Positions 27,545-45,668 of a DNA stretch of 64,000 bases are shown here, piece after piece. Under the pieces are notes generated by a model. The model was not told the DNA's origin and did no database searches. It saw only the letters and a list, made by a program, of their open reading frames with translations. Location: assembly GCA_038145705.1 (NCBI GenBank), contig JAYQQF010000009.1, positions 68,422 to 132,421 on the forward strand. Reading direction: 5' to 3'. This DNA is from Alphaproteobacteria bacterium. GTDB taxonomy: Bacteria; Pseudomonadota; Alphaproteobacteria; SMXQ01. Numbering within the stretch: the stretch's first letter is position 1; each line of letters begins with the position of its first letter. A program made the position numbers and the translations under genes.

Positions 27545-27573
27545 TTGACGGGGCGGTCGTTAAGCTTATAAAT
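27545..27573 (+). promoter_or_regulatory. sigma-70-like promoter (TTGACG - 17 nt - ATAAAT) for the regulator / rfaH-like operon
   Basis: A near-consensus -35 and -10 with a 17-nt spacer, 25 bp upstream of the GTG start at 27598. An RBS-like AAGGGGA precedes that start. Confidence 0.45.
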
Positions 27574-27597
27574 TGCGCAGATTCAAGGGGATAATCC

Positions 27598-28239
27598 GTG
27601 TTTTCGACGAAGCCGCGCGCCAAGACCGAACTGGATTTCCTTGCCGCCCTCGAGCGCGGCGAGGTCGTAACCCAGGCAACCCTGTCGCGCCGGATCGGCA
27701 TCGCCATCGGGCTGGTCAACGCGCTTCTCAAGCGCGCGACGCTGAAGGGCTTCGTCAAGGTTCGCACCGCCCCCTACAAGCGTTACGCCTATTACCTCAC
27801 GCCCCGCGGCTTCGCCGAGAAGAGCCGTCTGGTGGCCGAATACCTCGAAGTTTCCCTCGAATTCTTCCGCGAGGCGCGGCGCCAGTACCAGGACCTGCTC
27901 TGGCGTGCCGAACAGTCGGGCCGCAAGCGTCTTGTCTTGGTCGGCGGCGGCGAACTTGCGGAAATCGCGGTCCTTGCGTCGCGCGATCTCGGCGTCGAAC
28001 TGGTCGCCGTCGTCGATGCCGAAACCAACAGGAGCAGCCTGTTCGGCCTTCCCGTCGTGAGGAACATTGATCAGGCCGCAGATTGGGACGCCGTCATCAT
28101 TACCGACAGCAAGCGGCCGCAGGCTGTATATGACGAGATTAAGGGCATTGTGGATCCCGCACGCTTGCTGGCCCCCGAACTGCTCAAGATTACCCTTGCA
28201 CCGTCCGAGGGGCTCGAAGAGGGGGAGAGCGCCGCATGA
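27598..28239 (+). CDS. transcriptional regulator with an N-terminal winged helix-turn-helix and a C-terminal CoA-binding-type Rossmann domain (Rex-like architecture)
   Basis: wHTH (TQATLSRRIGIAIGLVNALLKRATLKGFVKV) followed by a Rossmann-like module (RLVLVGGGELAEIAVLASRDLGVELVAVVD...GLPVV...DAVII). GTG start. Its stop overlaps the next gene's start (ATGA). Confidence 0.55.
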   Translation: MFSTKPRAKTELDFLAALERGEVVTQATLSRRIGIAIGLVNALLKRATLKGFVKVRTAPYKRYAYYLTPRGFAEKSRLVAEYLEVSLEFFREARRQYQDLLWRAEQSGRKRLVLVGGGELAEIAVLASRDLGVELVAVVDAETNRSSLFGLPVVRNIDQAADWDAVIITDSKRPQAVYDEIKGIVDPARLLAPELLKITLAPSEGLEEGESAA

Positions 28240-28733
28240 AGGGCTGGTACGTCGTCTGTACCCATCCGAATCAGGAAAGGCGCGCCGAGGAAAACCTCCG
28301 TCGCCAGGGATTCCGCCCTTGGGTGCCGAGTTTCGCGCGCCTGCGCCGGCATGCGCGTCGCGTCGAGCGGGTGCGCGCGCCGCTTTTCCCGGGCTATCTG
28401 TTCGTCGAACTTGACCCCGTGCGCGAACCCTGGTCTGCGATCAATTCGACCTTTGGCGTGAAGCGGCTGATTTGCCGCAAGGATGTTCCGGCCAGGCTGC
28501 CCGAGGGGTTCGCCGAAGATCTGCGCGCCAGCGTCGAATCGCCCGATTTCATTGCCCCCGAAGACCGGCTCGATGCCGGAGATCGGGTACGCATTACCGA
28601 TGGCCCGTTTGCCGATGCGGTCGGCTTTATCAGCTCGATCGATCCGCAGCAGAGGGTGTCGCTGCTTTTGAGTCTGCTCGGACGCGAAGTATCCGTCGTC
28701 GTGCCGCGCGACTTGGTCGTCCTCGCTTCCTGA
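28236..28733 (+). CDS. rfaH: RfaH-like specialised NusG paralog (operon-specific transcription antiterminator)
   Basis: NGN domain (MKGWYVVCTHPNQERRAEENLRRQG...PLFPGYLFVELDP) is collinear with E. coli RfaH (MQSWYLLYC...PLFPNYLFVEFDP). It has a KOW-like C-terminus and is 165 aa. There is no secE/rplK context. It lies immediately upstream of an exact ops element. Confidence 0.7.
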   Translation: MKGWYVVCTHPNQERRAEENLRRQGFRPWVPSFARLRRHARRVERVRAPLFPGYLFVELDPVREPWSAINSTFGVKRLICRKDVPARLPEGFAEDLRASVESPDFIAPEDRLDAGDRVRITDGPFADAVGFISSIDPQQRVSLLLSLLGREVSVVVPRDLVVLAS

Positions 28734-28761
28734 GCGGGGCGTGTTTTCAGTCCTGGTCGAT

Positions 28762-28782: not shown

Positions 28783-28786
28783 AAAC

Positions 28787-28798
28787 GGCGGTAGCGTG
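28787..28798 (+). promoter_or_regulatory. ops (operon polarity suppressor) element GGCGGTAGCGTG, the RfaH recruitment/pause site
   Basis: Exact 12/12 match to the canonical E. coli ops sequence on the non-template (coding) strand. It lies 53 nt after the rfaH-like stop and 36 nt before the first biosynthetic gene. Confidence 0.75.
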
Positions 28799-28833
28799 CC
28801 GAAAGCCGGCCGCAGTCATATGGGAAGGTTCGC

Positions 28834-29772
28834 ATGAAGATTTTCGTTACCGGGGGATGCGGGTACAAGGGCACGGTGCTGGTGCCGAAGCTCCTGCGCG
28901 ACGGTCATGAGGTCGAGGTCCTCGACACCCAGTGGTTCGGCAATTTCCTTCCGAAGCATGCGGCGCTGAAGGTGCGCAAGGGCAGCGTCCTCGATATCGA
29001 GCGCATCAACCTTGAAGGCTTTGATGCCATCATCCACCTGTCGTCGGTTGCCAACGATCCTTGCGGCGATCTCGACCCGAAACTCACGTGGGAGATCAGC
29101 GCGCTCGCGACCATGCAAATCGCCGACAAGGCGGTTCGCCAAGGGGTGAAGCAGTTCATCTATGCGTCGTCGGGCAGCGTTTACGGCGTCAAGGAGGAAG
29201 AGCAGGTCACCGAGGATCTCGAACTGCTCCCCATCTCCGAATACAACAAGACCAAGATGGTGGCGGAACGGGTGCTGCTGTCCTACGAGCCGCAGATGGC
29301 CATTCAAATCGTTCGACCGGCGACGGTCTGCGGGCTGTCGCCGCGCATGCGCCTCGATGTTTCGGTCAACATGCTGACCATGCAGGCGCTCGAGCGGGGG
29401 CAAATCACCGTGTTCGGCGGTGACCAGACGCGCCCCAACATCCACATGGACGACATCACCGACGTTTACCTGCATCTCCTCGGCAACCCGGAAATCCGCG
29501 GGGTTTACAACGCCGGCTTCGAAAATCTCTCGATCATGGAAATTGCCGAGATGGTGACGTCCTTCGTTCCGGCGAAGATCGTCAAGCAGGGATCGAACGA
29601 TCCGCGCTCCTATCGCGTCAATTCGGACAAGCTTCTTGCGACCGGTTTCACGCCGCGCAAGACGGTGCGCGACGCCATCGCCGAGATCGTCGCGGCCTAC
29701 AAGGCGGGCGATCTCAAGAACGAACCGCATTTCCACAATCTGAAGTGGATGCAGGAAAAGGTTTTGGGTTAG
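28834..29772 (+). CDS. NAD-dependent epimerase/dehydratase (extended SDR) family protein
   Basis: Motifs VTGGCGYKG and the catalytic YNKTK. RBS GGGAAGG. Confidence 0.75.
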   Translation: MKIFVTGGCGYKGTVLVPKLLRDGHEVEVLDTQWFGNFLPKHAALKVRKGSVLDIERINLEGFDAIIHLSSVANDPCGDLDPKLTWEISALATMQIADKAVRQGVKQFIYASSGSVYGVKEEEQVTEDLELLPISEYNKTKMVAERVLLSYEPQMAIQIVRPATVCGLSPRMRLDVSVNMLTMQALERGQITVFGGDQTRPNIHMDDITDVYLHLLGNPEIRGVYNAGFENLSIMEIAEMVTSFVPAKIVKQGSNDPRSYRVNSDKLLATGFTPRKTVRDAIAEIVAAYKAGDLKNEPHFHNLKWMQEKVLG

Positions 29773-29786
29773 GTGGAGTTGTAAAC

Positions 29787-30791
29787 TTGACGCAAGGAGC
29801 GCCGAAGGTTCTGGTTTTGGGCAGCAACTCGTTCTCCGGGGCGAGTTTCGTTGCCCACGCGCTCGCACGCGGCGCGGACGTGATCGGCGTCAGCCGTTCC
29901 CCGGAACCCAACGCTGTCTTCCTGCCTTACCGCTGGGGCGGGGGGCTCGACCGCTTCCGTTTCCGCGCCCTCGACATCAATCGGGACCTTGATGCGATCA
30001 TTTCCCTGACGACCGCGGAAAAGCCCGATTACTTCGTAAATTTTGCCGCCCAGAGCATGGTCGGCGAAAGCTGGGACCGGCCCGAGGACTGGTTTCGTAC
30101 CAATGCGGTTTCCACCGTCATGCTGCACAACAGGCTGCGCAAGGAATGCGGCTTCCTCAGGAAGTTCGTGCATGTGACGACGCCCGAGGTCTATGGCAGT
30201 ACCCAGGGTTTCATCGACGAGACCACGCCCTTCAACCCGAGCACGCCCTACGCAGCGTCGCGCGCGGCGGGCGACATGAGCCTCAAGACTTTCGTCGAGG
30301 CCTACGGGTTCCCGGCCGTTTCCACCCGCGCCGCCAATGTTTACGGGCCGGGCCAGCAGCTTTACCGGATCATTCCGCGCACGATCCTGTTCATCCGCAT
30401 CGGCCGGAAGCTGCAGTTGCAGGGTGGCGGTCTGTCGGAGCGTTCATTCATCCATATAGACGATGTCAGCGACGCGACCTGGCGCGTCATGGAGGATGGC
30501 CCGGCCGGCGAGGTCTATCACATCTCCACCAACGAGATCGTGACCATCCGCGCGCTGGTCGAGCGCATCTGCGCGTTGATGAAGGTTTCCTTCGACGAGG
30601 TGGTCGAGGTCGTCGGCGACCGTCTGGGCAAGGATTCGGCCTACAAGCTCGACAGCACGAAAATCCGCAAATCTCTGGGTTGGACCGACCGCATCGGTCT
30701 GGACGAAGGCCTCGGGCAATGCATCGACTGGGTCGACCGCAACCTCGATGTCCTCAAGACCCAGGAAATGAATTACATCCACAAGCCGTGA
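29787..30791 (+). CDS. NAD-dependent epimerase/dehydratase (sugar-nucleotide 4,6-dehydratase-like) family protein
   Basis: Extended SDR fold (LVLGSNSFSGASF...TPYAASRAAGD). The start is uncertain: TTG at 29787 with a GGTGGAG RBS, or GTG at 29745, which overlaps the upstream gene. Confidence 0.65.
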   Translation: MTQGAPKVLVLGSNSFSGASFVAHALARGADVIGVSRSPEPNAVFLPYRWGGGLDRFRFRALDINRDLDAIISLTTAEKPDYFVNFAAQSMVGESWDRPEDWFRTNAVSTVMLHNRLRKECGFLRKFVHVTTPEVYGSTQGFIDETTPFNPSTPYAASRAAGDMSLKTFVEAYGFPAVSTRAANVYGPGQQLYRIIPRTILFIRIGRKLQLQGGGLSERSFIHIDDVSDATWRVMEDGPAGEVYHISTNEIVTIRALVERICALMKVSFDEVVEVVGDRLGKDSAYKLDSTKIRKSLGWTDRIGLDEGLGQCIDWVDRNLDVLKTQEMNYIHKP

Positions 30792-30813
30792 ACCGTTAGG
30801 GCACATAAAAACG

Positions 30814-32385
30814 ATGGCTGAACAAAAACCTTTCGATCGCCGTAGCCAGCCGCGCATGGCGCGCAACAAGATCCGCTCCATTGCGGAACTCGGCGAGATA
30901 TCTGCGCGCGCCAAGGCCGAGGGCCGCAAGGTCGTTCTCTGCCATGGCGTTTTCGACCTGTTGCACATGGGCCATGTCCGTCACCTTGAGGCCGCGCGCC
31001 GCGAAGGCCATGTCCTGTTCGTGACGCTGACCGCGGACAAGCATGTCAACAAGGGGCCCGGCCGGCCCGTCTTCACGGAACAGCTGCGCGCCGAGATGAT
31101 CGGATCGGTCGAATATGTCGATTGGGTCGGCATCAACGAAGCGCCCAGCGCGGAGCCCGTTCTTCAGGCCATCAAGCCCGATATCTACGTCAAGGGCAGC
31201 GACTACAAGAACCCGGGCGAGGACGTCACGGGCCGCATCGTTTCCGAACAGGAGGTTGTGGAGGCCCACGGCGGAAAGATCGTTTTCACCGACGACATCG
31301 TTTTTTCCTCGTCGGCGCTGATCAACCAGCATCTGGGGATTTACGAGCCGACGCTTCAGGCCTATCTCGGGCGGCTGCGCGACGAAGGCCGCCAGCAGCA
31401 GCTTCTCGATGCGATTGAGCGGCTCAGAGATCTCAAGGTCGTGGTCATCGGCGATGCCATTATCGACGAGTACCAGTACGTCCAGCCGATGGGCCGTTCG
31501 GCCAAGGAAAACATGATCGCGACCCTGTTCCAGGAACGCGAGGTCTTTGCCGGGGGCGTCTTCGCCGCGGCCAACCATGTCGCCGATTTCTGCGAGAACG
31601 TCACGGTCATCACCGGTTTCGGCGGCTACGACACCTACGAGGAAATGGCGCGCGGCAGCCTCAAGCCGAACATCTCGCTTCGGGCCGTATACCGGAAGGA
31701 AGCGCCGACCACGCGGAAGTGCCGCTTCATCGACCATGGCTATTCGATGCGCAAGATGTTCGAGGTCTACTTCATGGACGACAGGCCGTTGTCTGAAGAA
31801 AGCAGGCTGTCTCTAAACCGAGAGATTGAAAAAGCAATCACGGACGCCGATGTAGTCATTGTCACCGATTTCGGTCATGGCCTGCTTAGTGGCGACAGCA
31901 TCGCGCTTCTGGAGCAGAAATCGAAATTCCTCGCGGTGAATTCGCAGTCGAACGCCGGCAATCACGGCTACAACCTGGTCAGCAAATACAGGCGGGCGGA
32001 TTACGTGTGCGTCGACGGAACCGAGGCGCGGCTGGCGGTCCATGACAAATTTTCCGACATGGAAGATGTCGTAACAAAGCTTTTGCCCGGCCTGATTGAC
32101 TGCAACAACATCGTCGTCACGTTGGGCAAAAACGGCTGCTTCGCGTTCGACCGCAAGGCCGGCCTTTGCAAGGTTCCGGCCTTGACCAGTTCCATTGTCG
32201 ATACGGTCGGCGCGGGCGATGCGTTTTTCGCGCTCAGCGCGCCGATGGTAGCCGTCGGCCTGCCGATGGAACTGGTCGGCTTCTTCGGCAATGCGGCGGG
32301 CGCCATGAAGGTCGGCATCGTCGGCCACCGTTCCTCGGTCGAGAAAGTCCCGATGATCAAGTTCCTGACGGCGCTGCTGAAATAG
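30814..32385 (+). CDS. bifunctional heptose-1-phosphate nucleotidyltransferase / heptose-7-phosphate kinase-like protein (HldE-like, domains in reversed order)
   Basis: The N-terminus is an HxGH cytidylyltransferase-like domain (LCHGVFDLLHMGHVRHL...VTLTADKHVNKGPGRPV), as in HldE domain II. The C-terminus is a PfkB/ribokinase-family kinase (DTVGAGDAFF), as in HldE domain I. Confidence 0.65.
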   Translation: MAEQKPFDRRSQPRMARNKIRSIAELGEISARAKAEGRKVVLCHGVFDLLHMGHVRHLEAARREGHVLFVTLTADKHVNKGPGRPVFTEQLRAEMIGSVEYVDWVGINEAPSAEPVLQAIKPDIYVKGSDYKNPGEDVTGRIVSEQEVVEAHGGKIVFTDDIVFSSSALINQHLGIYEPTLQAYLGRLRDEGRQQQLLDAIERLRDLKVVVIGDAIIDEYQYVQPMGRSAKENMIATLFQEREVFAGGVFAAANHVADFCENVTVITGFGGYDTYEEMARGSLKPNISLRAVYRKEAPTTRKCRFIDHGYSMRKMFEVYFMDDRPLSEESRLSLNREIEKAITDADVVIVTDFGHGLLSGDSIALLEQKSKFLAVNSQSNAGNHGYNLVSKYRRADYVCVDGTEARLAVHDKFSDMEDVVTKLLPGLIDCNNIVVTLGKNGCFAFDRKAGLCKVPALTSSIVDTVGAGDAFFALSAPMVAVGLPMELVGFFGNAAGAMKVGIVGHRSSVEKVPMIKFLTALLK

Positions 32386-33357
32386 ATGATGGACGCAACC
32401 ACCCGCAAGGCGCTTTACCGTGCCATGAGCCGCATCCGCACCGTCGAGGAACGGATCGCGGACCTGTATCCCGAGCAGGAGATGCGCTGTCCGGTGCATC
32501 TGTGCATCGGGCAGGAGGCGGCGGAGGCCGGAACCGGTCTGGCGCTCGATCGGCGCGACTATGCGCTGTCGGGGCACCGGTCCCATGGCCATTACCTTGC
32601 CAAGGGCGGCGATCTCAAGGGCATGATGGCTGAAATCTACGGCAAGGCCACGGGATGCGCGGGCGGCAAGGGCGGCTCCATGCACCTTGTCGATCTCGAT
32701 GCCGGGTTCCTCGGCGCCGTGCCCATCGTCGGCAGCACCATTCCCATCGCCGTCGGCACCGCCTTCAGTTCGAAAATGAAGGGCGAGGACCGGGTGACCA
32801 TGGTCTTCTTCGGCGACGGCGCGACGGAGGCGGGCGTGTTTCACGAAAGCCTCAACTTCGCCGCCCTGCATGCTCTGCCCATCGTCTTCGTCTGCGAAAA
32901 CAACCTCTATTCCGTGTATTCGCCGATGGGCGTGCGCCAGCCTGACGGGCGTTCCATCGCCGGGATTGCCGCGGCCCATGGTGTCGCGACCCAAACGGGC
33001 GACGGCAATGATGCCGAGGCGGTCTTCACGCTCGCCAGCAAAGCAGTGGATGCTGCCCGGCGCGGACAGGGGCCGGTTTTCATCGAGCTTTCCACCTATC
33101 GCTGGCGCGAGCATTGCGGACCCAATTTCGACAATCACATCGGCTATCGCACCGAGGCCGAGTACGAGGAATGGCGGCAGCGAGATCCGCTGGCGCTCTA
33201 CCGCGCCCGGCTGATTGCCGACGGCGCCGCCACGGGCGCGGAACTCGCCGCCATCGATGCGGAACTCGCCGCCGAAATGGAGGACGCCGTAACGTTCGCG
33301 AAGTCCTCCCCGTTCCCGCCGCGCGAGAGCGCCGGCCAGCACATCTACGCTGAGTGA
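32386..33357 (+). CDS. thiamine-diphosphate-dependent dehydrogenase E1 component, alpha subunit (PDH/acetoin-DH E1-alpha-like)
   Basis: ThDP-binding motif GDGATEAG...NN and E1-alpha-like length and pattern. Confidence 0.8.
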   Translation: MMDATTRKALYRAMSRIRTVEERIADLYPEQEMRCPVHLCIGQEAAEAGTGLALDRRDYALSGHRSHGHYLAKGGDLKGMMAEIYGKATGCAGGKGGSMHLVDLDAGFLGAVPIVGSTIPIAVGTAFSSKMKGEDRVTMVFFGDGATEAGVFHESLNFAALHALPIVFVCENNLYSVYSPMGVRQPDGRSIAGIAAAHGVATQTGDGNDAEAVFTLASKAVDAARRGQGPVFIELSTYRWREHCGPNFDNHIGYRTEAEYEEWRQRDPLALYRARLIADGAATGAELAAIDAELAAEMEDAVTFAKSSPFPPRESAGQHIYAE

Positions 33358-33367
33358 GGGCCGCGCC

Positions 33368-34426
33368 GTGACCAGACAGATCAAGTTTTTCGAAGCGCTG
33401 CGCGAAGGCCTTGACCAGTGCATGGGGGCCGATGCCTCCGTCTACGTGATGGGCCTCGGCGTGCCCGATCCGGGCGGAATCTTCGGTTCGACCAAGGGGC
33501 TTGTGGAAAAATACGGGGCATCCCGGGTGCTCGACATGCCGCTCGCCGAAAACACCATGACAGGCGTTGCCATCGGTTCGGCGCTGACGGGACTGCGGCC
33601 GGTGCTGACCCACCAGCGCGTCGATTTTGCCATCCTGTCGATGGAGCAGCTCGTCAACCAGGCGGCCAAGTGGCACTACATGTTCGACGGGCGCATGCGC
33701 GTGCCGCTGGTCGTGCGCATGATCATCGGGCGCGGCTGGGGGCAGGGCCCGCAGCATTCCCAGAGCCTGCAGGCGATGTTCGCCCAGGTGCCGGGCCTCA
33801 AGGTGGTAATGCCGACCACGGCGTATGACGCCAAGGGTCTGCTGATCGCCGCCATCGAGGACGATAACCCGGTGGTCATGCTCGAGCACCGCTGGCTTTA
33901 CGGCATCGCCGACGATGTCCCCGAAGAGGCCTATCGGGTTCCGCTCGGCAAGGCCAAGATCATGCGCGAGGGCGGCGACGTCACCATCGTCGGGCTGTCC
34001 TACATGAGCCTGGAAAGCCTGCGCGCGGCAGATATTCTGAAGGGCTACGGCATTTCCGCCGAGGTCATCGACCTTCGTTCGCTGCGTCCCCTCGATGAAG
34101 CGACGATCCTGGCGTCGTTGCGCAAGACGGGCCGTCTTGTCGTCACCGATACGGCGCACGGGCCTTTCGGGGCGACGTCGGAGATCATGGCGCTCGCGGC
34201 GGAAAAGGCATTCGGCGCCCTCAAGGCGGCGCCGTCGCGGGTCTGCCTGCCCGATCATCCAGCACCGACCAGTCCGGCGCTTGCCGACGATTTCTATCCG
34301 CGCGCCGGCCACATCGCCGCCGCGGTGCTGCGCCAGTTGGGCCGCGAACCGGATGCCGCGCTGTTTGCGCCGCCCGCGGGCCGCCGCCTCGACCAGCCCG
34401 ATTCATCGTTTCAGGGGCCATTCTGA
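33368..34426 (+). CDS. E1 component beta subunit (transketolase-like pyrimidine-binding domain plus C-terminal domain)
   Basis: E1-beta pattern (MPLAENTMTGVAIG...RVPLVVR...VVMLEH...VTIVGLS). GTG start. Confidence 0.8.
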   Translation: MTRQIKFFEALREGLDQCMGADASVYVMGLGVPDPGGIFGSTKGLVEKYGASRVLDMPLAENTMTGVAIGSALTGLRPVLTHQRVDFAILSMEQLVNQAAKWHYMFDGRMRVPLVVRMIIGRGWGQGPQHSQSLQAMFAQVPGLKVVMPTTAYDAKGLLIAAIEDDNPVVMLEHRWLYGIADDVPEEAYRVPLGKAKIMREGGDVTIVGLSYMSLESLRAADILKGYGISAEVIDLRSLRPLDEATILASLRKTGRLVVTDTAHGPFGATSEIMALAAEKAFGALKAAPSRVCLPDHPAPTSPALADDFYPRAGHIAAAVLRQLGREPDAALFAPPAGRRLDQPDSSFQGPF

Positions 34427-35619
34427 TGAGTGAATTGCTTTCCAGCCTGTCGACGTCGCTCGGTACCGCTTGCGCAGTCTGTGGTGGGCCCACGGAGTCG
34501 ACCCTTGAACTGCCCGGGTTGCCTCTGACCGATACCTTCACGCGGACGCCGGTCGACAATCCCGTGAGCGGCATCGACCAGACGTTCAGGTTCTGCGAGG
34601 CCTGCGGGCACGGCCAGTTGGGGCATCAGGTCGCGCCCGAGGTGCTTTACGGCAGCAATTACTGTTTCCGCACATCGGCAAGCCCGACGGCGCGAAAGGG
34701 TACCGATTTCTTCATGTCGCTGCTGGACGAGGTAGCGGCAGGACGCCAGTTTCGCTCGGCCATCGATCTTGGCTGCAACGATCTTTTCCTTCTTGATCGT
34801 GTCGGCGACCGTGCCGCATTGCGCACAGGCGTCGATCCGATCTGGAAGGGGCGCGAGCATGAAATGGATGGCCAGCCCATCCGCGTGATCGGCGCCCCCA
34901 TCGAGGACGTGGATCTTTCCGTGCTGGACCAGAAGCCGGACCTCGTGATGTGCCGCCACACGCTCGAACACATCGCGCGTCCGCGCGATGTCGTTGCGGG
35001 ACTGCTGGCGGGCGCGGCTGACGATGCCATTTTCGTTTTCGAGGTTCCGGGCATCGAGGCTCTGGTCAACCGCTGTCGTTTCGACCAGGTGTTTCACCAG
35101 CATCTCCAGTATTTTTCGATGCGGTCGTTTCTGAAAATGCTGGAAGGCCTTGGCGCCAGGGCCATCGCGGTGAAGTCGCACTATCACGACTGGGGCGCCT
35201 TCGCGGTCGCGTTCGCCAAGGGTGGCGATGGTGGCGCGGCGCCCCTGCTGGATGCCCCGGACGGGGAGAAGATGTCTTCTCGGCTGAAGGTTTTCCGCTC
35301 GCAGATGGCTGCGAACGCGGAATTGATACGATTGATCGATGGACCGGCCTTCGGTTACGGCGCCGCGCAGATGTTGCCGGTGCTCGCCTATCACATGGGC
35401 ACGGATCTCGGGTTTCTCGACGCGGTGATCGATGACGATCCGGAAAAGGAAGGCGTATTCTACTGGAACCTGCCGGTCAGCATCCGGCCGCTCGCAGCGG
35501 TGGGAAGCCTCGATGCCGCGACGGTCCTGATTACGGCGGTCGACAGCGCGCAGCCCATTTTGCGCCGTCTTCTCGAAAGGCGGCCCCGTCACATCATTCA
35601 TCCCTTCAACATGATTTAA
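34426..35619 (+). CDS. C-methyltransferase-family protein (N-terminal zinc ribbon, SAM methyltransferase, C-terminal C-MT domain; TylC3/NDP-hexose C-methyltransferase-like)
   Basis: CAVCG...CEACGHG zinc-binding pairs, a methyltransferase core (IDLGCNDLF) and a long C-terminal domain, as in sugar C-methyltransferases. Confidence 0.6.
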   Translation: MSELLSSLSTSLGTACAVCGGPTESTLELPGLPLTDTFTRTPVDNPVSGIDQTFRFCEACGHGQLGHQVAPEVLYGSNYCFRTSASPTARKGTDFFMSLLDEVAAGRQFRSAIDLGCNDLFLLDRVGDRAALRTGVDPIWKGREHEMDGQPIRVIGAPIEDVDLSVLDQKPDLVMCRHTLEHIARPRDVVAGLLAGAADDAIFVFEVPGIEALVNRCRFDQVFHQHLQYFSMRSFLKMLEGLGARAIAVKSHYHDWGAFAVAFAKGGDGGAAPLLDAPDGEKMSSRLKVFRSQMAANAELIRLIDGPAFGYGAAQMLPVLAYHMGTDLGFLDAVIDDDPEKEGVFYWNLPVSIRPLAAVGSLDAATVLITAVDSAQPILRRLLERRPRHIIHPFNMI

Positions 35620-35640
35620 ATCGGAAGCAGGTCGCAACAG

Positions 35641-36330
35641 ATGTCAGACGGCAAAGCCAGGGAATTCCAGAACCAGAGCCAGATCGACGACTATGGGAGC
35701 CGTGGCGGCGTATCCTTCGGGCCGTGGACGAGCCACATCTGGCGCACCGACCCACGCCACCTCGCCTTTCTGATGTCGCGCTACAAGTTCATTTCGAAGA
35801 TGCTGGCCGGACGCGAAAAGGCCTTCGAGGTCGGCTGCGGCGATGCGGCGGGCACACCGGTCGTGCTGCAAACCGTGAAGCGCGTCTTCGCCATCGATTT
35901 CGAGCCGCTGGTTCTCGAGGATGCGCGCAGGCGCTATGCCGCGGAAGGAGACGACCGGGTGCGTTTCGCCGTTCACGATATCTGCAGCGCGCCGGTGGAT
36001 GAAAAAGGTTTCAACGGCGCCTATTGCCTGGACGTGATCGAGCACGTCCCCGCCGAGCGCGAAGCCCTTTTCATGCGCAACATCGTCGCATCCCTCGATC
36101 GCCACGGCGTGTTCATCATCGGCACGCCCAATGTGACGGCCCAGCAGTATTCCAGCCCGGCGAGCATGGAAGGGCATATCAACCTCAAGAGTGCCAAGAC
36201 GCTGCATGAACTGATGGCCGTTCATTTTCACAATGTTTTCGACTTTTCGATGAATGACGAAGTCGTGCACACGGGGTACTCGCCGATGGCGCATTACCTG
36301 TTCTGCATGGGCGTCGGGGTCAAGTCGTAG
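35641..36330 (+). CDS. class I SAM-dependent methyltransferase
   Basis: Motifs FEVGCGDAAG and CLDVIEHV. Confidence 0.65.
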   Translation: MSDGKAREFQNQSQIDDYGSRGGVSFGPWTSHIWRTDPRHLAFLMSRYKFISKMLAGREKAFEVGCGDAAGTPVVLQTVKRVFAIDFEPLVLEDARRRYAAEGDDRVRFAVHDICSAPVDEKGFNGAYCLDVIEHVPAEREALFMRNIVASLDRHGVFIIGTPNVTAQQYSSPASMEGHINLKSAKTLHELMAVHFHNVFDFSMNDEVVHTGYSPMAHYLFCMGVGVKS

Positions 36331-36353
36331 GAACTGGCGCGGGGTATCGAATC

Positions 36354-37133
36354 ATGGACCTTGGAATCAAAGGCAAGCTGGCGCTGGTGACGGGGGCGGG
36401 TCGCGGCCTTGGCCGCGCGATTGCGAAGTCCCTTGCCGACGAGGGCGCGCGGGTCGTCGCGACGTCGCGGACGGAAGCCGACCTCGATGAATTGATGGCC
36501 GAGATCGGCGGAACTGGCGCCGGGCATCTTTCGGTCCCGATGGACATCGTGCCCGAGGGCGGGCCGGCGGAGCTTTTGCGCAAGTCACGCGAAGGCGGTT
36601 TCGATCATTTCGACATCGCCGTCCATAACGTCGGCGGGACCCTCGACATAAAGGATCCTTTCTGCTCCGTCGAGGACTGGCGGCGCGTCTACCGCTTCAA
36701 CTTCGAGGTCGCGGTCGAGCTGAACGCCTTGATCGTGCCCGCCATGCAGAAGCGCAAATGGGGCCGTGTCGTGCATATTTCCTCGATTTCGGCGATGGAA
36801 AACCATGGTCCCGTCACCTATTGCGCGATGAAGGCGGCATTGACCGCCTATACCCGCAGTTTCGGCGGCGTTGTCGCGCCCGACGGCGTGGTGATCTCGG
36901 CTGTCCTGCCGGGCGCCGTATTCACCGAAGGCGGTTACTGGGATACCACATCGCGGGAAAACCCCGAGCATGTGCGCAAGTATCTGACGGAACGTCAGCG
37001 CATCGGCCGCTTCGGCCGGCCCGAGGAAATCGGTAACTACGTAGCCTACCTCTGTTCCGAACTCGCATCCTTCAGCACGGGCAGCATCGTGCCGGTGGAC
37101 GGCGGGCAGGGCAGGGGCTATTTCGGCCAGTAA
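36354..37133 (+). CDS. SDR family oxidoreductase
   Basis: TGAGRGLG with a YxxxK core (YCAMKAA). Confidence 0.8.
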   Translation: MDLGIKGKLALVTGAGRGLGRAIAKSLADEGARVVATSRTEADLDELMAEIGGTGAGHLSVPMDIVPEGGPAELLRKSREGGFDHFDIAVHNVGGTLDIKDPFCSVEDWRRVYRFNFEVAVELNALIVPAMQKRKWGRVVHISSISAMENHGPVTYCAMKAALTAYTRSFGGVVAPDGVVISAVLPGAVFTEGGYWDTTSRENPEHVRKYLTERQRIGRFGRPEEIGNYVAYLCSELASFSTGSIVPVDGGQGRGYFGQ

Positions 37134-37164
37134 TCAGGGCCAGTAATCAGGGCAGGAACCCAAT

Positions 37165-37953
37165 ATGACCGCCAACGTGCTCAACAAGGATTTGCGCCGG
37201 CTGATCGTCGACATGACTGTCGCCGGGCGCGACGGGCATATCCCGAGCGCCTTCTCGATCGTGGATATCATCACCTATCTTTACGACCATGTTCTTCGGA
37301 TCGATCCGAAGAAACCGGATGATCCCGCGCGCGATTATTTCGTCCTCAGCAAGGGGCATGGATGCCTGGCGCTTTACGTCAACCTGCGCCGGCATGGGTT
37401 CATTACCGATCACGATATCGACACCTTCTGCAAGAAGGGCGGGATCCTCGGCGAGCATCCCGATCTGTGCAAGGTGCCGGGCGCCGAAGCGTCGTCGGGC
37501 TCCCTCGGCCATGGGCTCAGTTTTGCGGTCGGCATCGCGATGGGGCACAAGATCAAGAAGATGAACAACCGCATGTTCGTCCTGATCGGCGATGGCGAAA
37601 GCCACGAAGGCACCGTCTGGGAAGCAGCCCATGTCGCGGCCAATCACCGGCTGAAGAACCTCTGCGTGATCGTCGACTGGAACCGCTCGGGCATGCAGCT
37701 TCTGCCGATGGACGACCTGCCGGCGAAGTGGCGGGCCTTCGGCTGGCACACCCAGGAAATCGACGGCCACGACGAGGCCCAGATCAAGGCTGCCTGCGAT
37801 GCGGTCGCGGCCAAGACGACGGACCAGCCGAGCGTGATCGTTGCTCATACGGTCAAAGGCAAGGGCGTGCCGATGATCGAAGGACACGGCATGTGGCATC
37901 ACCGCATTCCCAACAAGGACGAATACGCTCACATCATGGAAGTGTTGTCATGA
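37165..37953 (+). CDS. transketolase, N-terminal (ThDP-binding) subunit of a split transketolase
   Basis: HIPSAFSIVDI...LSKGHG...GSLGHGL...GDGESHEG, the transketolase N-section. Confidence 0.8.
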   Translation: MTANVLNKDLRRLIVDMTVAGRDGHIPSAFSIVDIITYLYDHVLRIDPKKPDDPARDYFVLSKGHGCLALYVNLRRHGFITDHDIDTFCKKGGILGEHPDLCKVPGAEASSGSLGHGLSFAVGIAMGHKIKKMNNRMFVLIGDGESHEGTVWEAAHVAANHRLKNLCVIVDWNRSGMQLLPMDDLPAKWRAFGWHTQEIDGHDEAQIKAACDAVAAKTTDQPSVIVAHTVKGKGVPMIEGHGMWHHRIPNKDEYAHIMEVLS

Positions 37954-38882
37954 CCCCGGAAAAAGCCCTGCGTCAGCAGTTCGCCGATACCATGCTGGCG
38001 GTCGGCCAGGAAGACAGAGACCTCGTCGTCATCGTCGGCGACATCAGTCACGGCATCCTCCAGCCCTTCGCCAAGGCCTGCCCGGAGCGTTATTTCAACA
38101 TCGGCATCCTTGAACCGACGACCATGAGCCTGACCGCCGGCATGGCCCGCGTCGGTTTGTATCCGGTGCTGCACACGATCGCCCCGTTCCTGATCGAGCG
38201 CTCGTTCGAGCAGATCAAGCTCGATTTCTGCTATCACAAGCTGCACGGCAACATCATCACCGTGGGCAGCGCCTTCGACTATTCGAACCTCGGCTGTACC
38301 CATCACTGTTACGGCGACTTCGCCTTGCTCAAGACCCTGCCGGGTGTCGAGATCACCTACCCGGGATCGGCCGTCGAGTTCGATGCGCTCTTCCGTCAGG
38401 CCTATCGCAACGACAAGGTGACCTATTACCGCCTGCCCGGTACGCCGCACGGGGTCGTGTTCAAGCCCGAGGACGTCGTGCTAGGCAGGGGCATCAAGGT
38501 GGCAGAGGGGTCCGATATCACCCTGATCGGGACCGGCCCGCACCTGCGCACCGCACTGGATGTGCGTGACCGCCTGGCGGCCGAAGGCAAGAGCGCCGAG
38601 GTGCTCTACATCCATACCATCCGCCCCCTCGATTGCGAGCTGGTGCGCGCGAGCATTGCCAAGACCCGGAGGGCCGTGGTGATCGAGGAACACATGCGAT
38701 CGGGCGGGCTCGGCGACGAGGTGCTGAGAGAAACGCGGGACATTCCCGATGTCAAGTTTGCCTCCGCTTCGATCCCGGACCGCTTTGTCACCGGCTACGG
38801 TACCTACGAGGACCTGCTCGAGAGCATCGGGCTGACGGTTGATGGGGTCCTGTCGCTGATCGCGGAAAAGCGTTTCTTCTGA
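37950..38882 (+). CDS. transketolase, C-terminal (pyrimidine-binding plus C-terminal domain) subunit
   Basis: ATGA overlap with the upstream subunit. Transketolase C-section motifs (YFNIGILEPTTMSLTAG...). Confidence 0.8.
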   Translation: MTPEKALRQQFADTMLAVGQEDRDLVVIVGDISHGILQPFAKACPERYFNIGILEPTTMSLTAGMARVGLYPVLHTIAPFLIERSFEQIKLDFCYHKLHGNIITVGSAFDYSNLGCTHHCYGDFALLKTLPGVEITYPGSAVEFDALFRQAYRNDKVTYYRLPGTPHGVVFKPEDVVLGRGIKVAEGSDITLIGTGPHLRTALDVRDRLAAEGKSAEVLYIHTIRPLDCELVRASIAKTRRAVVIEEHMRSGGLGDEVLRETRDIPDVKFASASIPDRFVTGYGTYEDLLESIGLTVDGVLSLIAEKRFF

Positions 38883-38893
38883 AAGTCAGGGAA

Positions 38894-39892
38894 ATGAGCA
38901 ACGAGCGCACGCGAGCCATTGTTCTGGAACAGGTCGCTGCCCTTTCGGGCAAGGCGGATACGGTGGTTTCCGTCTGGGACACGCAGATTTTCCCGCTGAC
39001 CGTCGGCGGGCTGCTCATCGGGTTGCAGGAAATCCTGATGCTGCGCGCGCTCGTGGGGGCGCGGCGCGGCGTTCTTTGCGTGATTTCCCCGAAGGATGCC
39101 GGAGGCGGCGTGGCATTCAGGGCCGGCGATGCCGTGCCGAACCCGCTCGTGGAATTTGCGATGGCGACGCAAGCCATCGAGGAGTTCCATTACCTGCCCG
39201 ACCACGCTGCGGTTGCCGGCGTTGTCGCCGGGCGCTCCGCCCTGCTCTGGCCGTCCGAAACGGTTGCGCGGGAGCGGGCCCATGTTTATGGCACCACGCT
39301 TTACCTTCAGGCCCTTTACGACAGGCTCGGCAGGTTGCCGATGCTCTCGGTAGCAGGTCCCGCAAAAGAGTGGGCTCGGCGGTTTCTGGCTGAAAAATTC
39401 GGCGCCCGCCCGGTCATCGCCCTGCACCTGAAGAACAAGCCTGGTGCGATCAACGAAAGCAACGCGAATTTCCCCGCCTGGGCGGAATTCCTCGCAGAGG
39501 CGCCGGTGCGCCACGAGTGCGGCTTCGTCCTCGTCGGCAACGAGCCGGTGCCTGATTCGGTTCGGTCCCTGCCGCATGTCGTGCTCGCAGCCGACCATGG
39601 CAGCGCCTTGTGCCGCGATCTCGCCCTGATCGACTGTGCCCAGGCGTTCATGGGCATGGCGAGCGGCCTTTGCCAGATGGCGATGTTCGGTTCGAAGCCC
39701 TACATCGTGTTCAAGAATCCCGGACACCATGCCCCGGAAATGCAGCTTGAGCTTGGCGATGCCGATGGCTTCAACTTTTCGGGCAGGGCGCAGAAACTGC
39801 TGCGCATCCTTGATTCCCAAGATGTCCTTTTCCGCGAGTTCGGCGACGTTCTCGATGCTCTCGAATGCGGGACCGAGGAGGCCAGAACATGA
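38894..39892 (+). CDS. hypothetical protein, glycosyltransferase family 9 (heptosyltransferase)-like
   Basis: A weak GT9-like pattern (RPVIALHLKNKPGA...FVLVGNEP...ALIDCAQAFMGMASGLCQMAMFGSKPYIVF). Confidence 0.4.
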   Translation: MSNERTRAIVLEQVAALSGKADTVVSVWDTQIFPLTVGGLLIGLQEILMLRALVGARRGVLCVISPKDAGGGVAFRAGDAVPNPLVEFAMATQAIEEFHYLPDHAAVAGVVAGRSALLWPSETVARERAHVYGTTLYLQALYDRLGRLPMLSVAGPAKEWARRFLAEKFGARPVIALHLKNKPGAINESNANFPAWAEFLAEAPVRHECGFVLVGNEPVPDSVRSLPHVVLAADHGSALCRDLALIDCAQAFMGMASGLCQMAMFGSKPYIVFKNPGHHAPEMQLELGDADGFNFSGRAQKLLRILDSQDVLFREFGDVLDALECGTEEART

Positions 39893-40695
39893 CCAGTGGA
39901 ATTTCCGGAAAGATTGCACTCGTGACCGGCGGGGGCAGCGGCATCGGGGCCAATATTTCGAAAAAGCTGGCGGCGCTTGGCGCCCATGTCTGGATGTTCG
40001 GCCTGCACGAGGAGAACCTTGTCCGGACCGCGGATGAAATCCGCCGTGACGGCGGGTCGGCGGAGTTCCGCGTGACGGATTTTGCAAAGCCCCATGCTCC
40101 CGAAGAGGCCGTGCGCCTTGTCGTTTCGCACGCCGGCCGCATCGATATTCTGGTCAACAATGCACGCAACCGGCAGCGGACGAATCTGCAGACGGAGACG
40201 CTTGAAAGCTGGAATGAATCGATTGCAGTGCTGCTGAGCCTGCCTTTTTTCGCCTCCCAAGAGGCCATGAAAAGCATGGAAGCCCGGAAATCCGGGTGCA
40301 TCGTCAACATCAGTTCGACCTCGGGCCTGTATTCGAGCCATGAGTCGCCCGCCTATCATGTGACCAAGGCGGCACTCATTCATCTGACCCGGTATCTTGC
40401 CAACCGGGGCGGCCCTTCGGGTATCCGGGTGAATACCGTCACCCCTGGTTTCATCATCAAGGATGAACATAGGGCGCGATACCAAGGCGACGGAAACGAG
40501 GCTTTTCGCGAAATGGTGGAATACATCCATCCGCTGCGGCGCCCCGGTTACCCGGATGATGTCGCCGAGGCGGTCGCCTTTCTCGCTTCGGATGAGGCGG
40601 CCTTCATCACCGGTCAGAATTTGACGGTTGATGGCGGCCTTGTCGACCAGGGGCCGTGGGAATTGTTGACGGGTTATCTCAAGGACAGGGAATAA
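39889..40695 (+). CDS. SDR family oxidoreductase
   Basis: TGGGSGIG with YHVTKAA. ATGA overlap with the upstream gene. Confidence 0.8.
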   Translation: MTSGISGKIALVTGGGSGIGANISKKLAALGAHVWMFGLHEENLVRTADEIRRDGGSAEFRVTDFAKPHAPEEAVRLVVSHAGRIDILVNNARNRQRTNLQTETLESWNESIAVLLSLPFFASQEAMKSMEARKSGCIVNISSTSGLYSSHESPAYHVTKAALIHLTRYLANRGGPSGIRVNTVTPGFIIKDEHRARYQGDGNEAFREMVEYIHPLRRPGYPDDVAEAVAFLASDEAAFITGQNLTVDGGLVDQGPWELLTGYLKDRE

Positions 40696-40784
40696 ATTCA
40701 GTCTTCATGTGATCAGGTAAGTACTGCCTTGCGAAAATCTTGCGGGGCCATCTGCAAAAGGGAAAAGTCCAAAAAGGATAGCCA

Positions 40785-41453
40785 ATGGGTCAGGAAATCA
40801 ATCTTCTCTCGGAATATCCGCGTTCCAAACGACCGATCGACGATCGCGCCAAGCTGATTACCGAAGAGCATCGCGCCGTCGCCCGCAAATTTGGCCCGGA
40901 ATTCTTCGATGGGGACCGGCTGACCGGGTATGGAGGGTTTAATTACCATCCGAGGTTCTGGACCGATACGGTGCGCCGGTTCCGCGATCATTACAATCTG
41001 GCATCCGACGCGCGGGTTCTCGATGTCGGCTGCGCCAAGGGCTTCATGATATATGACTTCAAGCTGCTGATGCCTGAAGCTGATGTGCGCGGTATCGATG
41101 TTTCCAGCTACGCGATAGAGCATGCGAAAGAAGAGGTTCGGGAGTTCGTGCAGGTTGCCGATGCAATGCAGCTGCCATATCCCGACAACTCCTTCGATCT
41201 TGTGATCTCGATAAACACTATCCATAACCTGCCTCTTGATCAGTGCAAGCAGGCTTTGCGGGAAATCCAGCGCGTATCGAAAAAAAACGCCTTCGTAACG
41301 ATGGACGCTTGGCGCAACGAAGCGGAAAAAAAGGCGATGCTCGCGTGGAATCTCACCGCGCTCACCTACATGCATGTGGATGACTGGAAAAAAGTTTTTG
41401 ATGAGGTCGGTTACACCGGTGACTACTATTGGTTCATTGCTGAATCGGCCTGA
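40785..41453 (+). CDS. class I SAM-dependent methyltransferase
   Basis: Motifs VLDVGCAKG and DLVISINTIHNL. Confidence 0.7.
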   Translation: MGQEINLLSEYPRSKRPIDDRAKLITEEHRAVARKFGPEFFDGDRLTGYGGFNYHPRFWTDTVRRFRDHYNLASDARVLDVGCAKGFMIYDFKLLMPEADVRGIDVSSYAIEHAKEEVREFVQVADAMQLPYPDNSFDLVISINTIHNLPLDQCKQALREIQRVSKKNAFVTMDAWRNEAEKKAMLAWNLTALTYMHVDDWKKVFDEVGYTGDYYWFIAESA

Positions 41454-41474
41454 TTCGACTGGGACCCTGCTCCG

Positions 41475-43522: not shown

Positions 43523-43669
43523 TAGTGTTCGCTCACATCTACGGGGGTCGCTACTCGGTGCTATTCGGCTATTGCCTCGATGTATCCGACCTGTCGCTTG
43601 CCAAGGTGTCGGCGAAATTTCCCATCATGGATTCTCAAGAAAATTATTCCCCAACAAAATAGTTCAGGC

Positions 43670-44863: not shown

Positions 44864-45065
44864 ATTGGCGACTTCCTGATATGTCTGGATGCATAAAATG
44901 TTTTGCCGCCCGCAAGGCGCCACTCGATGCAGCCGTTATTCCCGCGCGCTTGAACTTCAGGCAGCGGCAAGCAGGAATTTCCGCTTAGTGAGAACAGCGG
45001 CTTCGGCATTGTCCATTGTGACCGGTCCCGATGTTTCAGAACAGCGAAGTCAGCCGATGGGTGAA

Positions 45066-45668
45066 CTAGTCGCCGTGTCTGCTGGCGTGCTTCAGAATAT
45101 GGGCCGCCGCCGCGCTCAGGTCGGGGAAAATCGCCGTCGCCCGTGGCAGTCCTCGTTCTTTTTCATGTGCCAGCCGATCGATTTCCTTGGCGCCATGGCC
45201 ACTTCGCAGCAGGTAGGTGGTGCCGAGCCCTGCATTGATGCCGGCTTCGATGTCGGTAAGCGTGTCACCGATCATAATGCTGGACGAAAGCTCGATACAG
45301 AAATCGCGGGCGGCCTGCAGAAGGAGACCCGGGCCCGGTTTTCTGCAGTCGCTCGCGCGCCGATAGGCTTCAACAGAAGCTTCAGGATGGTAGGGCGAAA
45401 AATATATTGCGTCGATTTTTGCGCCCTCTATCGCAAGAAGAGTCAGAAGCCGTTCGTGTATTTTTTCGAGCCCCTCCTCACTGAGGTACCCACGGGCAAT
45501 CGCGGATTGATTTGTCACGACGATGACAAGCCATCCCGCAAGATTGAGCGATCGCACGGCTTCCGCCGCGCCAGACAGCAATGCGATCTGATCCGGATCC
45601 GTGATGTAACTTTGCTCACGGTTCAGAACGCCGTCGCGGTCCAGAAAAATTGCACTCCTTTTCCGCAT
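45066..45668 (-). CDS. gmhB: D-glycero-D-manno-heptose 1,7-bisphosphate phosphatase (HAD-IIIA)
   Basis: Motifs FLDRDGVLN, VVTNQS and KP..G. About 200 aa. It is the only minus-strand gene inside the locus. Confidence 0.8.
   Translation of the reverse strand: MRKRSAIFLDRDGVLNREQSYITDPDQIALLSGAAEAVRSLNLAGWLVIVVTNQSAIARGYLSEEGLEKIHERLLTLLAIEGAKIDAIYFSPYHPEASVEAYRRASDCRKPGPGLLLQAARDFCIELSSSIMIGDTLTDIEAGINAGLGTTYLLRSGHGAKEIDRLAHEKERGLPRATAIFPDLSAAAAHILKHASRHGD

Follow-up and report, generated by a model that had tools for sequence, protein, structure and literature searches.

A conserved hairpin–ops element beside an RfaH-like gene in Alphaproteobacteria: a candidate loading site for antitermination ahead of a long glycan operon

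Introduction

The antitermination factor RfaH of Escherichia coli is loaded onto RNA polymerase by a DNA signal known as ops, the operon polarity suppressor, in work associated with Bailey, Hughes and Koronakis and with Artsimovitch and Landick, and RfaH and ops together have become the textbook case of a sequence-specific elongation factor. An exact copy of this signal, the 12-mer GGCGGTAGCGTG, lies in a 64-kb stretch of DNA from a member of the Alphaproteobacteria (the window, to which all positions below refer), between a gene for an RfaH-like paralog of NusG and a long series of co-directional glycan-biosynthesis genes. Does it serve here, too, to load the neighbouring factor onto RNA polymerase? 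Our results show that the 12-mer is preceded by a conserved hairpin, that both are linked to the rfaH-like gene in many genomes, and that the same element occurs in front of other polysaccharide operons. We consider it likely, at a probability of roughly 70%, that the hairpin and the 12-mer (28761-28798) constitute a functional ops-type site at which polymerase pauses and the adjacent RfaH-like antiterminator is loaded, and the best reading of the sequence is that it would represent the alphaproteobacterial counterpart of the enterobacterial JUMPstart/ops signal.

Parts of this picture are familiar. Alphaproteobacteria contribute 18% of the rfaH genes, those outside the CL1 cluster tend to adjoin envelope genes, and the CL4 cluster goes together with a transcriptional regulator of the helix-turn-helix (HTH) type (PMC7593976). 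The mechanism of recruitment, in turn, is understood only for E. coli RfaH, for which residue R73 and autoinhibition have been modelled as late acquisitions tied to the reading of ops (PMC7593976). Our locus resembles CL4, as described, in that an HTH regulator adjoins its RfaH-like gene and cell-envelope genes lie nearby, but that study reports no ops sequence or hairpin beside these genes. In the literature searched, which mostly lay outside the subscription journals, we found no published ops or hairpin–ops motif from Alphaproteobacteria or rhizobia. The alphaproteobacterial RfaH homologs, their envelope-gene neighbours and the HTH-adjacent cluster are therefore already known, and the ops sequence and the principle are the same, whereas the hairpin, the cis-linked cassette and the divergent surface with which the protein may read its DNA are new.

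Results and discussion

An exact ops element precedes the glycan operon

A preliminary description of this DNA had noted an exact ops element on the coding strand. The 12-mer is indeed present, on the sense (non-template) strand of the flanking genes, in the context ...cgaTGGGTGAAAgccgtTTTCACCCAaacGGCGGTAGCGTGcc... (positions 28751-28800 read tcctggtcgaTGGGTGAAAgccgtTTTCACCCAaacGGCGGTAGCGTGcc), and this is the only exact copy in the window, whereas a mean of 0.01 copies was expected from 100 dinucleotide-preserving shuffles. The judgement that a chance match is very unlikely thus holds, all the more since the position is conserved across dozens of genomes. Matches with up to two mismatches are not enriched in the window (11 seen, 10.1 expected), and two 12-mers with a single mismatch, at 59644 (+) and 42949 (-), are intragenic and lack a hairpin; the remarkable part is the exact copy at exactly this place, not the looser matches. 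This copy retains the consensus-pause bases G2, T11 and G12. Also kept are the bases from which, in E. coli, the small non-template DNA hairpin is built, namely the C3:G8 pair and a loop of G4-A7 that includes G5 and T6.

The surroundings largely agree with the earlier account. The element lies upstream of the first glycan gene, although the start codon (ATG at 28834) follows the 12-mer after 35 nt and not after the 36 nt initially counted. Just before the hairpin, the gene at 28236-28733, designated RfaH-like, encodes a NusG paralog that matches the RfaH family best; its stop codon is separated from ops by 53 nt. The estimate of about 33 co-directional glycan genes is roughly right, with 31 genes after the element and four more on the + strand before it (two methyltransferase genes, the HTH gene and the rfaH-like gene), which means that the element does not stand at the very head of the run. 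With a G+C content of 61.5% and almost exclusively alphaproteobacterial relatives, the window also fits the proposed high-GC, alphaproteobacterial type of genome. As in the RfaH/ops systems of E. coli and Salmonella, the non-template strand here thus carries an identical 12-nt ops, placed in the leader of an envelope-polysaccharide operon of great length and lower G+C content, and the hallmarks of an RfaH target (great operon length, here 35 kb, an envelope glycan as product and reduced G+C) are all present.

The element is linked to RfaH-like genes across genomes and metagenomes

A profile of the RfaH-like protein, run against contigs from one genome per species, yielded 80 loci that were selected by the protein alone. 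Nearly all of them belong to Alphaproteobacteria, including Rhodospirillales, Hyphomicrobiales, Kiloniellaceae, Thalassospira and many metagenome-assembled genomes. On the strand of the gene, the 200 nt past the stop codon (16 kb over all loci) contain 35 copies of the ops core GCGGTAGC, versus 21 on the + strand and 22 on the - strand of the other 881 kb. Nine of the + strand copies found elsewhere lie 1-5 kb downstream of the gene, each behind a CACC(C)-type arm like the proximal copies. Exact 12-mers number 12, all on the strand of the gene and all preceded by a CACC(C) arm, with ten located within 300 nt past the stop codon and two further downstream. The distance from stop codon to ops is narrowly distributed, with a median of 60 nt in genomes and 68 nt in metagenomes and an interquartile range of about 55-75 nt. 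Within 45 aligned copies, GCGGTAGC is invariant, position 1 is T as often as G, position 10 is free, and the pause bases G2, T11 and G12 are largely invariant. Since these copies were selected for the 8-mer, its invariance is partly built in, and the independent evidence is its positional enrichment. A relaxed scan added only a few ops variants that lie at this distance, for example GGCGGTCGCGTG in locus L078 and TGCGGCAGCAGT, with a T6 to C change, in locus L074. The linkage between the hairpin–ops element and the rfaH-like gene is non-random, and chance is ruled out as its cause.

A converse search, starting from the motif, led to the same association. Scanning of metagenome contigs for TCACCCRRANKGCGGTAGCRTG returned at least 120 contigs. 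Among the matches listed, an RfaH-like gene lies directly upstream on the same strand, usually behind an HTH gene, in 81 contigs and elsewhere on the contig in three; 22 contigs offer at least 650 nt of upstream sequence without such a gene, and in 14 the upstream sequence is too short to judge. Relative to the roughly 106 assessable contigs among these matches, 81 thus carry the gene directly upstream and 22 have stand-alone motif copies. The latter, again among the matches listed, are intergenic, and five of six downstream genes scanned are polysaccharide genes, encoding a Wzy_C/O-antigen ligase, CpsB/CapC, a WecG-type glycosyltransferase, an FkbM methyltransferase and an epimerase; the exception is a gene for a solute-binding protein, 400 nt away. 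As judged by eye, five of ten extracted downstream proteins look homologous to the Wzy_C/O-antigen-ligase protein. In these sequences, the element appears both as the immediate neighbour of the factor gene and as a leader signal of other glycan operons, which is the pattern expected of a regulon that is controlled in cis and in trans.

The HTH gene is a regular companion of this arrangement. It lies directly upstream of, and co-directional with, the rfaH-like gene in about 64 of the 80 genome loci and in most metagenome contigs, and probably forms part of the same regulatory cassette. In four loci, a hairpin–ops element is found next to a copy of the HTH gene and not directly after the rfaH-like gene (L012, 11224-11263; L053, 10763-10802; L070, 9594-9635; L013, 6539-6573). 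With the motif placed beside the HTH gene, before or after it, in some genomes, the order of the cassette does not appear to be fixed. Contig CBDCKM010000001.1 encodes two RfaH-like paralogs 25 kb apart (L007 and L064), each behind an HTH gene; L007 alone is followed by a hairpin–ops element, and it additionally carries the ops-like sequence CGCGGTAGCGTG at position 1381.

A conserved hairpin forms part of the element

As reported in the preliminary description, a perfect 8-bp hairpin precedes the 12-mer, in which GGGTGAAA (28762-28769) pairs with TTTCACCC (28775-28782), leaving a spacer of 4 nt. An additional closing pair, T28761-A28783, extends the stem to 9 bp and shortens the spacer to 3 nt, which is the conserved geometry of the relatives. 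The ops-anchored alignment reveals a CGGGTG...CACCCG inverted repeat, followed by RAN and then by the ops consensus (Table 1). At the RNA level, the consensus of the hairpin is CGGGUG...CACCCG, and the window shows a compensatory U-A variant of the closing C-G pair. MAFFT alone left the 5' arm of the hairpin unaligned, a problem solved by building a covariance model, termed R1, from 13 loci copies of identical geometry and realigning the rest; the window was excluded from this set. R1 recovers the window element with 48.5 bits (E ~1e-11), which is the one strong copy in the window with filters switched off. A further match at 23643-23675 (+), with 16.7 bits and the tail GGCGGAAGCATG, lacks the ops core, lies antisense within an epimerase gene (22801-23805 (-)) and is probably due to chance. 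In the 80 loci, matches on the + strand up to E = 1 were obtained in 46 (46 of 56 matches), the weakest of which (14-18 bits) are tentative, and matches below E = 1e-4 in 30.

In the 31 best R1 matches, 91.8% of the cells are paired, and four of the nine base pairs have changed on both sides, in a total of 22 cells. Pairing falls to 30-52% when the partner is slid by one to three columns, and the observed covariation was reached in none of 500 shuffles, with the caveat that the alignment had been fitted to the model. The arms enclose 12-23 nt in most copies, with loops of 3-13 nt, and this variable length points to a folded single strand and would not suit a rigid operator bound by an HTH dimer. 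Relatives with 90%, 66% and 64% identical RfaH-like proteins retain the hairpin and ops as a conserved island in a diverged spacer, and their downstream genes differ. The putative functional unit is therefore the conserved hairpin with the 3-nt spacer and ops, rather than the 12-mer alone. Owing to the constant spacer, the base of the hairpin sits 14 nt behind the expected pause position, U11, an offset probably similar to that at which exit-channel hairpins act in hairpin-stabilised pauses.

The element is distinct from the gammaproteobacterial JUMPstart

A hairpin next to ops is also known from the JUMPstart sequence, which was reportedly described by Hobbs and Reeves in 1994. JUMPstart has been listed for Gammaproteobacteria, and a conserved stem-loop has been noted in it (PMC2864571). 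Like the corresponding Rfam family, RF01707, our element places a short stem-loop directly 5' of ops in the 5' region of polysaccharide gene clusters, and the ops part of the E. coli waaQ JUMPstart is identical to the 12-mer in the window. The hairpins differ, however, in that JUMPstart has a 5-bp cUGG/CCAg stem and a 1-nt spacer, whereas the alphaproteobacterial element has a 9-bp stem containing CGGGUG/CACCCG and a 3-nt spacer. Accordingly, the two covariance models discriminate between them. RF01707 assigns 55.2 bits to the E. coli waaQ leader, which served as the positive control, but only 13.7 bits to the window element, which it picks up at a permissive E-value with the ops part alone aligned, against a gathering score of 35 bits; R1 conversely yields 13.2 bits for the waaQ leader, again with the ops part alone aligned, compared with the 48.5 bits for the window. 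At the Rfam gathering threshold, no JUMPstart match was found in the window or in 11 related alphaproteobacterial loci. By these comparisons, the element stands apart as a variant of the JUMPstart/ops signal of Gammaproteobacteria that shares ops and the plan of a hairpin before it, but not the hairpin itself.

In E. coli K-12, the hairpin and ops of the waaQ JUMPstart lie inside the annotated small RNA gene rirA (L205, 12167-12239 (-)). This overlap indicates that a fragment of the E. coli leader also exists as a stable RNA and raises the question of whether a similar leader RNA is found in Alphaproteobacteria.

The RfaH-like protein retains part of the ops-reading surface

Among the NCBIfam families, the product of the rfaH-like gene is matched best by RfaH (TIGR01955, 119.3 bits), ahead of UpxY (74.8), NusG (64.8) and LoaP (58.2). 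Its closest solved structure is likewise that of E. coli RfaH (2.4e-16), followed by NusG (3.6e-11), so that, as in the enterobacterial systems, the NusG paralog at this locus is closest to RfaH. E. coli RfaH reads the flipped T6 and G5 of the non-template DNA hairpin, which the C3:G8 pair keeps together; contacts to ops come from the side chains of K10, H20, R23 and R73, and the exchanges K10A, H20A and R73A abolish recruitment (PMC5995543).

At the equivalent positions, the window protein has H10, N20, R23, Q24 and F73, and A48 in place of the autoinhibition residue E48. Across 121 members of the RfaH-like family, R23 (119) and Q24 (120) are almost always kept, whereas K10 is replaced by H (42), L (31), Q (29) or R (14) and retained in only four members, H20 is mostly N (95) and less often H (23), and R73 does not occur at all, giving way to F (84), Y (15) or aliphatic residues (21). 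E48 is likewise found in none of the 121 members, of which 71 have A, while R138 is invariant (R140 in the window protein); R16, T72 and G74 are conserved as well. Variation at ops position 1 (G/T) or 10 is not significantly associated with residues 10, 16, 20 or 73 (Fisher p = 0.10, a value confounded by phylogeny), nor do the residues of the RfaH-like proteins clearly separate loci with and without the motif. As the ops core does not vary, no co-variation between protein and DNA can be demonstrated. Presumably, the protein recognises an unchanged DNA shape through a pocket that differs in part, perhaps with aromatic stacking by F/Y73; alternatively, ops may act mainly as a pause.

An AlphaFold2 prediction based on the family alignment (pLDDT 86.5) folds residues 117-157 into a β-barrel KOW domain instead of the α-hairpin typical of RfaH. 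Together with A48, this predicted β-barrel C-terminal domain (CTD) suggests that the protein may lack autoinhibition. The RfaH-typical, leucine-rich LLLxLL stretch is retained, and fold switching would be compatible with it.

A model for recruitment and its alternatives

The following scenario would account for these observations. RNA polymerase most likely arrives from upstream, after transcribing the HTH and rfaH-like genes; only some 25-40 nt separate the rfaH-like stop codon from the hairpin, too little to hold a promoter of its own. It would then transcribe the hairpin and pause within GGCGGTAGCGTG, where the RfaH-like NusG paralog, encoded 53 nt upstream, could bind the paused complex. 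Travelling with the polymerase, the factor would exclude NusG and Rho, suppress pausing and convert the enzyme into a termination-resistant form, thereby allowing the 35-kb glycan operon of lower G+C content to be transcribed to its end. The protein might read ops with a partly different surface, made up of the kept R23 and Q24, N or H at position 20 and an aromatic F/Y73, without K10. The ribosome that finishes the factor would release it beside the polymerase paused at ops, and the short distance of about 60 nt between the stop codon and ops, together with the possible lack of autoinhibition, may favour such loading in cis.

Precedents for this geometry are provided by UpxY of Bacteroides, LoaP of Bacillus, TaA of Myxococcus and the monomorphic RfaH homologs (PMC13015549), whose genes also head or adjoin their presumed target operons, which specify polysaccharides or secondary metabolites, and whose NusG-like CTDs are probably not autoinhibited either. 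The window protein falls below the family cut-offs of UpxY (74.8 versus 100) and LoaP (58.2 versus 125), and, unlike these systems, the present locus has a defined E. coli-type ops downstream of the gene, whereas the recruitment signals of UpxY-, LoaP- and TaA-type systems are unknown or different (PMC7593976). The monomorphic homologs tested so far are gammaproteobacterial, and recruitment in cis has been proposed for cases in which they are encoded next to long operons (PMC13015549). This proposal fits our locus, but here it would operate with a defined DNA signal, which that study does not describe.

Several observations weigh against a loading site of this kind. The protein scores 119.3 bits, below the RfaH equivalog cut-off of 144.5; three of the four ops-contacting side chains (K10, H20 and R73) are replaced in its family, which makes specific reading of ops by this protein presumptive. 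E48 is never present, the predicted CTD is of the NusG-like β type, and the E48A variant of E. coli RfaH is ops-independent (PMC13015549). Moreover, about 40% of the 80 loci lack the motif within 6 kb, and the 130 nt past the stop codon in these roughly 32 loci showed no alternative shared signal, with near-variants only in L054 and L074. Finally, a terminator-like hairpin (28721-28749) lies between the rfaH-like stop codon and the hairpin–ops element. The comparative data nonetheless uphold the original proposal of an RfaH/ops-type system, subject to four amendments: the unit comprises the hairpin, a 3-nt spacer and ops; it falls below the Rfam JUMPstart cut-off; the protein remains under the RfaH equivalog cut-off and lacks three of the four ops-reading side chains as well as E48; and the element does not head the co-directional run. 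Given the missing side chains and the absence of E48, the modes of recognition and autoinhibition known from E. coli are not simply transferable. The system further differs from that of E. coli in that its rfaH-like gene lies in cis, behind an HTH gene, and in that its host belongs to the Alphaproteobacteria; K10 has given way to H, Q, L or R, H20 to N, R73 to F, Y or V, and E48 to A.

These same features would suit a situation in which the 12-mer is kept merely as a strong consensus pause, and a constitutively active RfaH-like protein, just released from the trailing ribosome, loads in cis without reading the DNA. The absence of R73 and E48, the near-absence of K10 and the frequent replacement of H20 among the 121 members agree with this idea, as do the β-barrel CTD predicted by AlphaFold2, the tight spacing between stop codon and ops (median 60-68 nt, interquartile range about 55-75) and the cis recruitment proposed for monomorphic RfaH homologs beside long operons (PMC13015549). 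We nevertheless regard it as rather unlikely, because a mere pause signal would tolerate far more variation: the non-pause bases C3, G4, G5, T6, A7 and G8 are invariant in the aligned copies (selected for GCGGTAGC), whereas the pause bases, G2 aside, are not all so. In addition, R23 and Q24, which make up half of the T6 pocket, are nearly invariant, and about a quarter of the assessable motif copies among the matches listed lack an upstream rfaH-like gene; for these, the factor would have to act in trans and therefore recognise the site with some specificity. The element could also act at the RNA level, independently of the RfaH-like protein, as a structure of the 5' untranslated region that might, for example, stabilise the transcript, mark it for processing or give rise to a small RNA comparable to RirA of E. 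coli. The RNA-type covariation of the hairpin, including G-U pairs, speaks for such a role, as do the overlap of the E. coli JUMPstart with the annotated small RNA rirA and the -10-like sequences seen by eye just upstream of some stand-alone copies, which would place the hairpin at the 5' end of the transcript. As a full explanation, however, it appears improbable, since it accounts neither for the exact RfaH ops tail nor for the rfaH-like gene upstream in 81 of about 106 assessable contigs among the matches listed; an RNA-level role would be compatible with loading of the RfaH-like protein as an added function, not as a replacement.

Little credit can be given to the notion that the neighbouring HTH regulator binds CGGGTGA...TCACCCG as its DNA operator, or that this inverted repeat belongs to a promoter, with a secondary resemblance to ops. 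Both arms are conserved in sequence and not in pairing alone, and the HTH gene is adjacent in about 64 of 80 genome loci, but the distance between the arms (12-23 nt enclosed in most copies, loops of 3-13 nt) varies to a degree intolerable for a dimeric winged-helix operator. The G-U pairs and compensatory changes agree with a single strand that folds, it is the single-stranded ops tail that does not vary, and between the element and the start codon there is no space for a promoter. A chance occurrence of the 12-mer in G+C-rich DNA, finally, has a practically negligible probability: matches with one or two mismatches do occur in the window at the rate expected by chance, but only 0.01 exact copies are expected, and the conservation of the position across dozens of genomes and more than 100 metagenome contigs already refutes it.

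Going beyond the candidate loading site itself, it is tempting to speculate that the HTH gene, the rfaH-like gene, the hairpin and ops form a self-loading antitermination module, a tentative idea that we hold to be less probable than not by a wide measure. Polymerase would pause about 60 nt past the stop codon, with the hairpin filling the gap to the terminating ribosome, and capture the just-released, non-autoinhibited factor. Recognition of ops would then be older than, and independent of, the K10/H20/R73 contacts and the fold switch, and the factor would also serve stand-alone leaders in trans, by means of a pocket of N20, R23, Q24 and an aromatic residue 73 that reads the flipped G5 and T6. 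If true, such a module would revise the model in which ops contacts and autoinhibition arose late and together (PMC7593976).

Implications for RfaH-type regulation

Our results identify a conserved candidate recruitment site for a large alphaproteobacterial clade of RfaH proteins; to date, E. coli is the one organism for which the mechanism of recruitment has been worked out. From class to class, the ops core stays the same even where most of the known ops-contacting residues have changed, and this persistence makes an evolutionary order of DNA reading first and autoinhibition later directly testable. The presence of a second, structurally different hairpin beside ops hints that the pairing of the two, also seen in JUMPstart, is functional. 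In practical terms, R1 can be used to predict RfaH-type regulons for capsule, O-antigen and exopolysaccharide in environmental and symbiotic Alphaproteobacteria. Should loading in cis prove true, it would be a simple way to target a non-autoinhibited NusG paralog without poisoning NusG function. The locus thus represents a widely conserved and experimentally tractable case that bears on an open question of RfaH and NusG biology, rather than a new principle.

Features of the locus and neighbouring genes

The features of the cassette and its presumed target are compiled in Table 1. The HTH stop codon overlaps the rfaH-like start codon (ATGA), and the C-terminal half of the HTH protein shows only a faint NeuD/PglD-N-like match. 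In a simple scan for promoters and terminators, the sole promoter-like site precedes the HTH gene, with none inside the 3' end of the rfaH-like gene; the ops-carrying transcript might begin at the candidate at 27545-27574. The T-run after the terminator-like hairpin is longer in a relative whose RfaH-like protein is 90% identical (L201), and other loci have unrelated, variable hairpins at this place. In the window, the hairpin may serve as an attenuator or leaky terminator and thereby hold down basal read-through into ops.

Table 1. Positions of the regulatory cassette, the hairpin–ops element and the presumed target operon in the window.
Feature	Position	Strand	Basis or remark
Sigma-70-like promoter candidate, TTGACG-18-TAAATT	27545..27574	+	Consensus match alone, 1 found versus 0.4 expected; weak
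HTH protein, 213 aa, MarR_EPS-like winged-helix N-terminus	27598..28239	+	MarR_2/HTH_24; TIGR04176 46.7 bits, below cut-off of 88
RfaH-like specialised NusG paralog, 165 aa	28236..28733	+	Pfam NusG 1e-19 and KOW
Terminator-like hairpin CCTCGCTTCCTGAGCGGGG over the rfaH-like stop codon, then GTGTTTTCA	28721..28749	+	Not above shuffle expectation
Conserved hairpin, 9-bp stem UGGGUGAAA/UUUCACCCA, 5-nt loop	28761..28783	+	Sequence, alignment to model R1, covariation
3-nt spacer AAC between hairpin and ops	28784..28786	+	Fixed length in alignments; family consensus RAN
ops 12-mer GGCGGTAGCGTG	28787..28798	+	Family consensus [G/T]GCGGTAGC[G/A/Y]TG
Shine-Dalgarno-like GGGAAGG and ATG of the first downstream gene	28822..28836	+	Read from sequence
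Presumed target, at least 31 tightly packed co-directional glycan-biosynthesis genes	28834..63869	+	Gene content, composition

RfaH-type factors typically protect foreign-looking DNA of low G+C content from silencing. The first 24 kb of the window contain housekeeping genes (encoding aspartate kinase, PtsP, IspG, HisS, PrfA and ClpB), and the G+C fraction of 0.64-0.68 in this part drops to 0.53-0.58 in the distal operon (40000-64000), which suggests that the distal glycan genes were acquired horizontally. The enzymes encoded by the presumed target operon include epimerases/dehydratases, an HldE-like kinase/adenylyltransferase, two pairs of thiamine pyrophosphate (TPP) enzymes, a C-methyltransferase and other S-adenosylmethionine (SAM) methyltransferases, glycosyltransferases of the GT1, GT2 and GT61 families and a DegT aminotransferase. 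They are accompanied by an ABC exporter, RmlB/RmlA-like genes, an ATP-grasp enzyme, oxidoreductases, a radical SAM enzyme and an FkbM methyltransferase. The segments 30814-38882 and 56417-63869 (+) hold an unusual set: the gene for the HldE-like heptose kinase/adenylyltransferase, the two separate TPP-dependent E1/transketolase-like pairs, the C-methyltransferase and several SAM methyltransferases, the ATP-grasp enzyme, an iron-containing alcohol dehydrogenase, the radical SAM enzyme and the FkbM methyltransferase. Such a combination suggests a polysaccharide that contains heptose and is heavily modified, possibly by branching or methylation. Four adjoining or neighbouring open reading frames of the operon, at 44889-48501 and 60093-61355 (+), of 326, 387, 478 and 420 aa, have no Pfam match, and some of them may encode Wzy-like polymerases or other membrane proteins.

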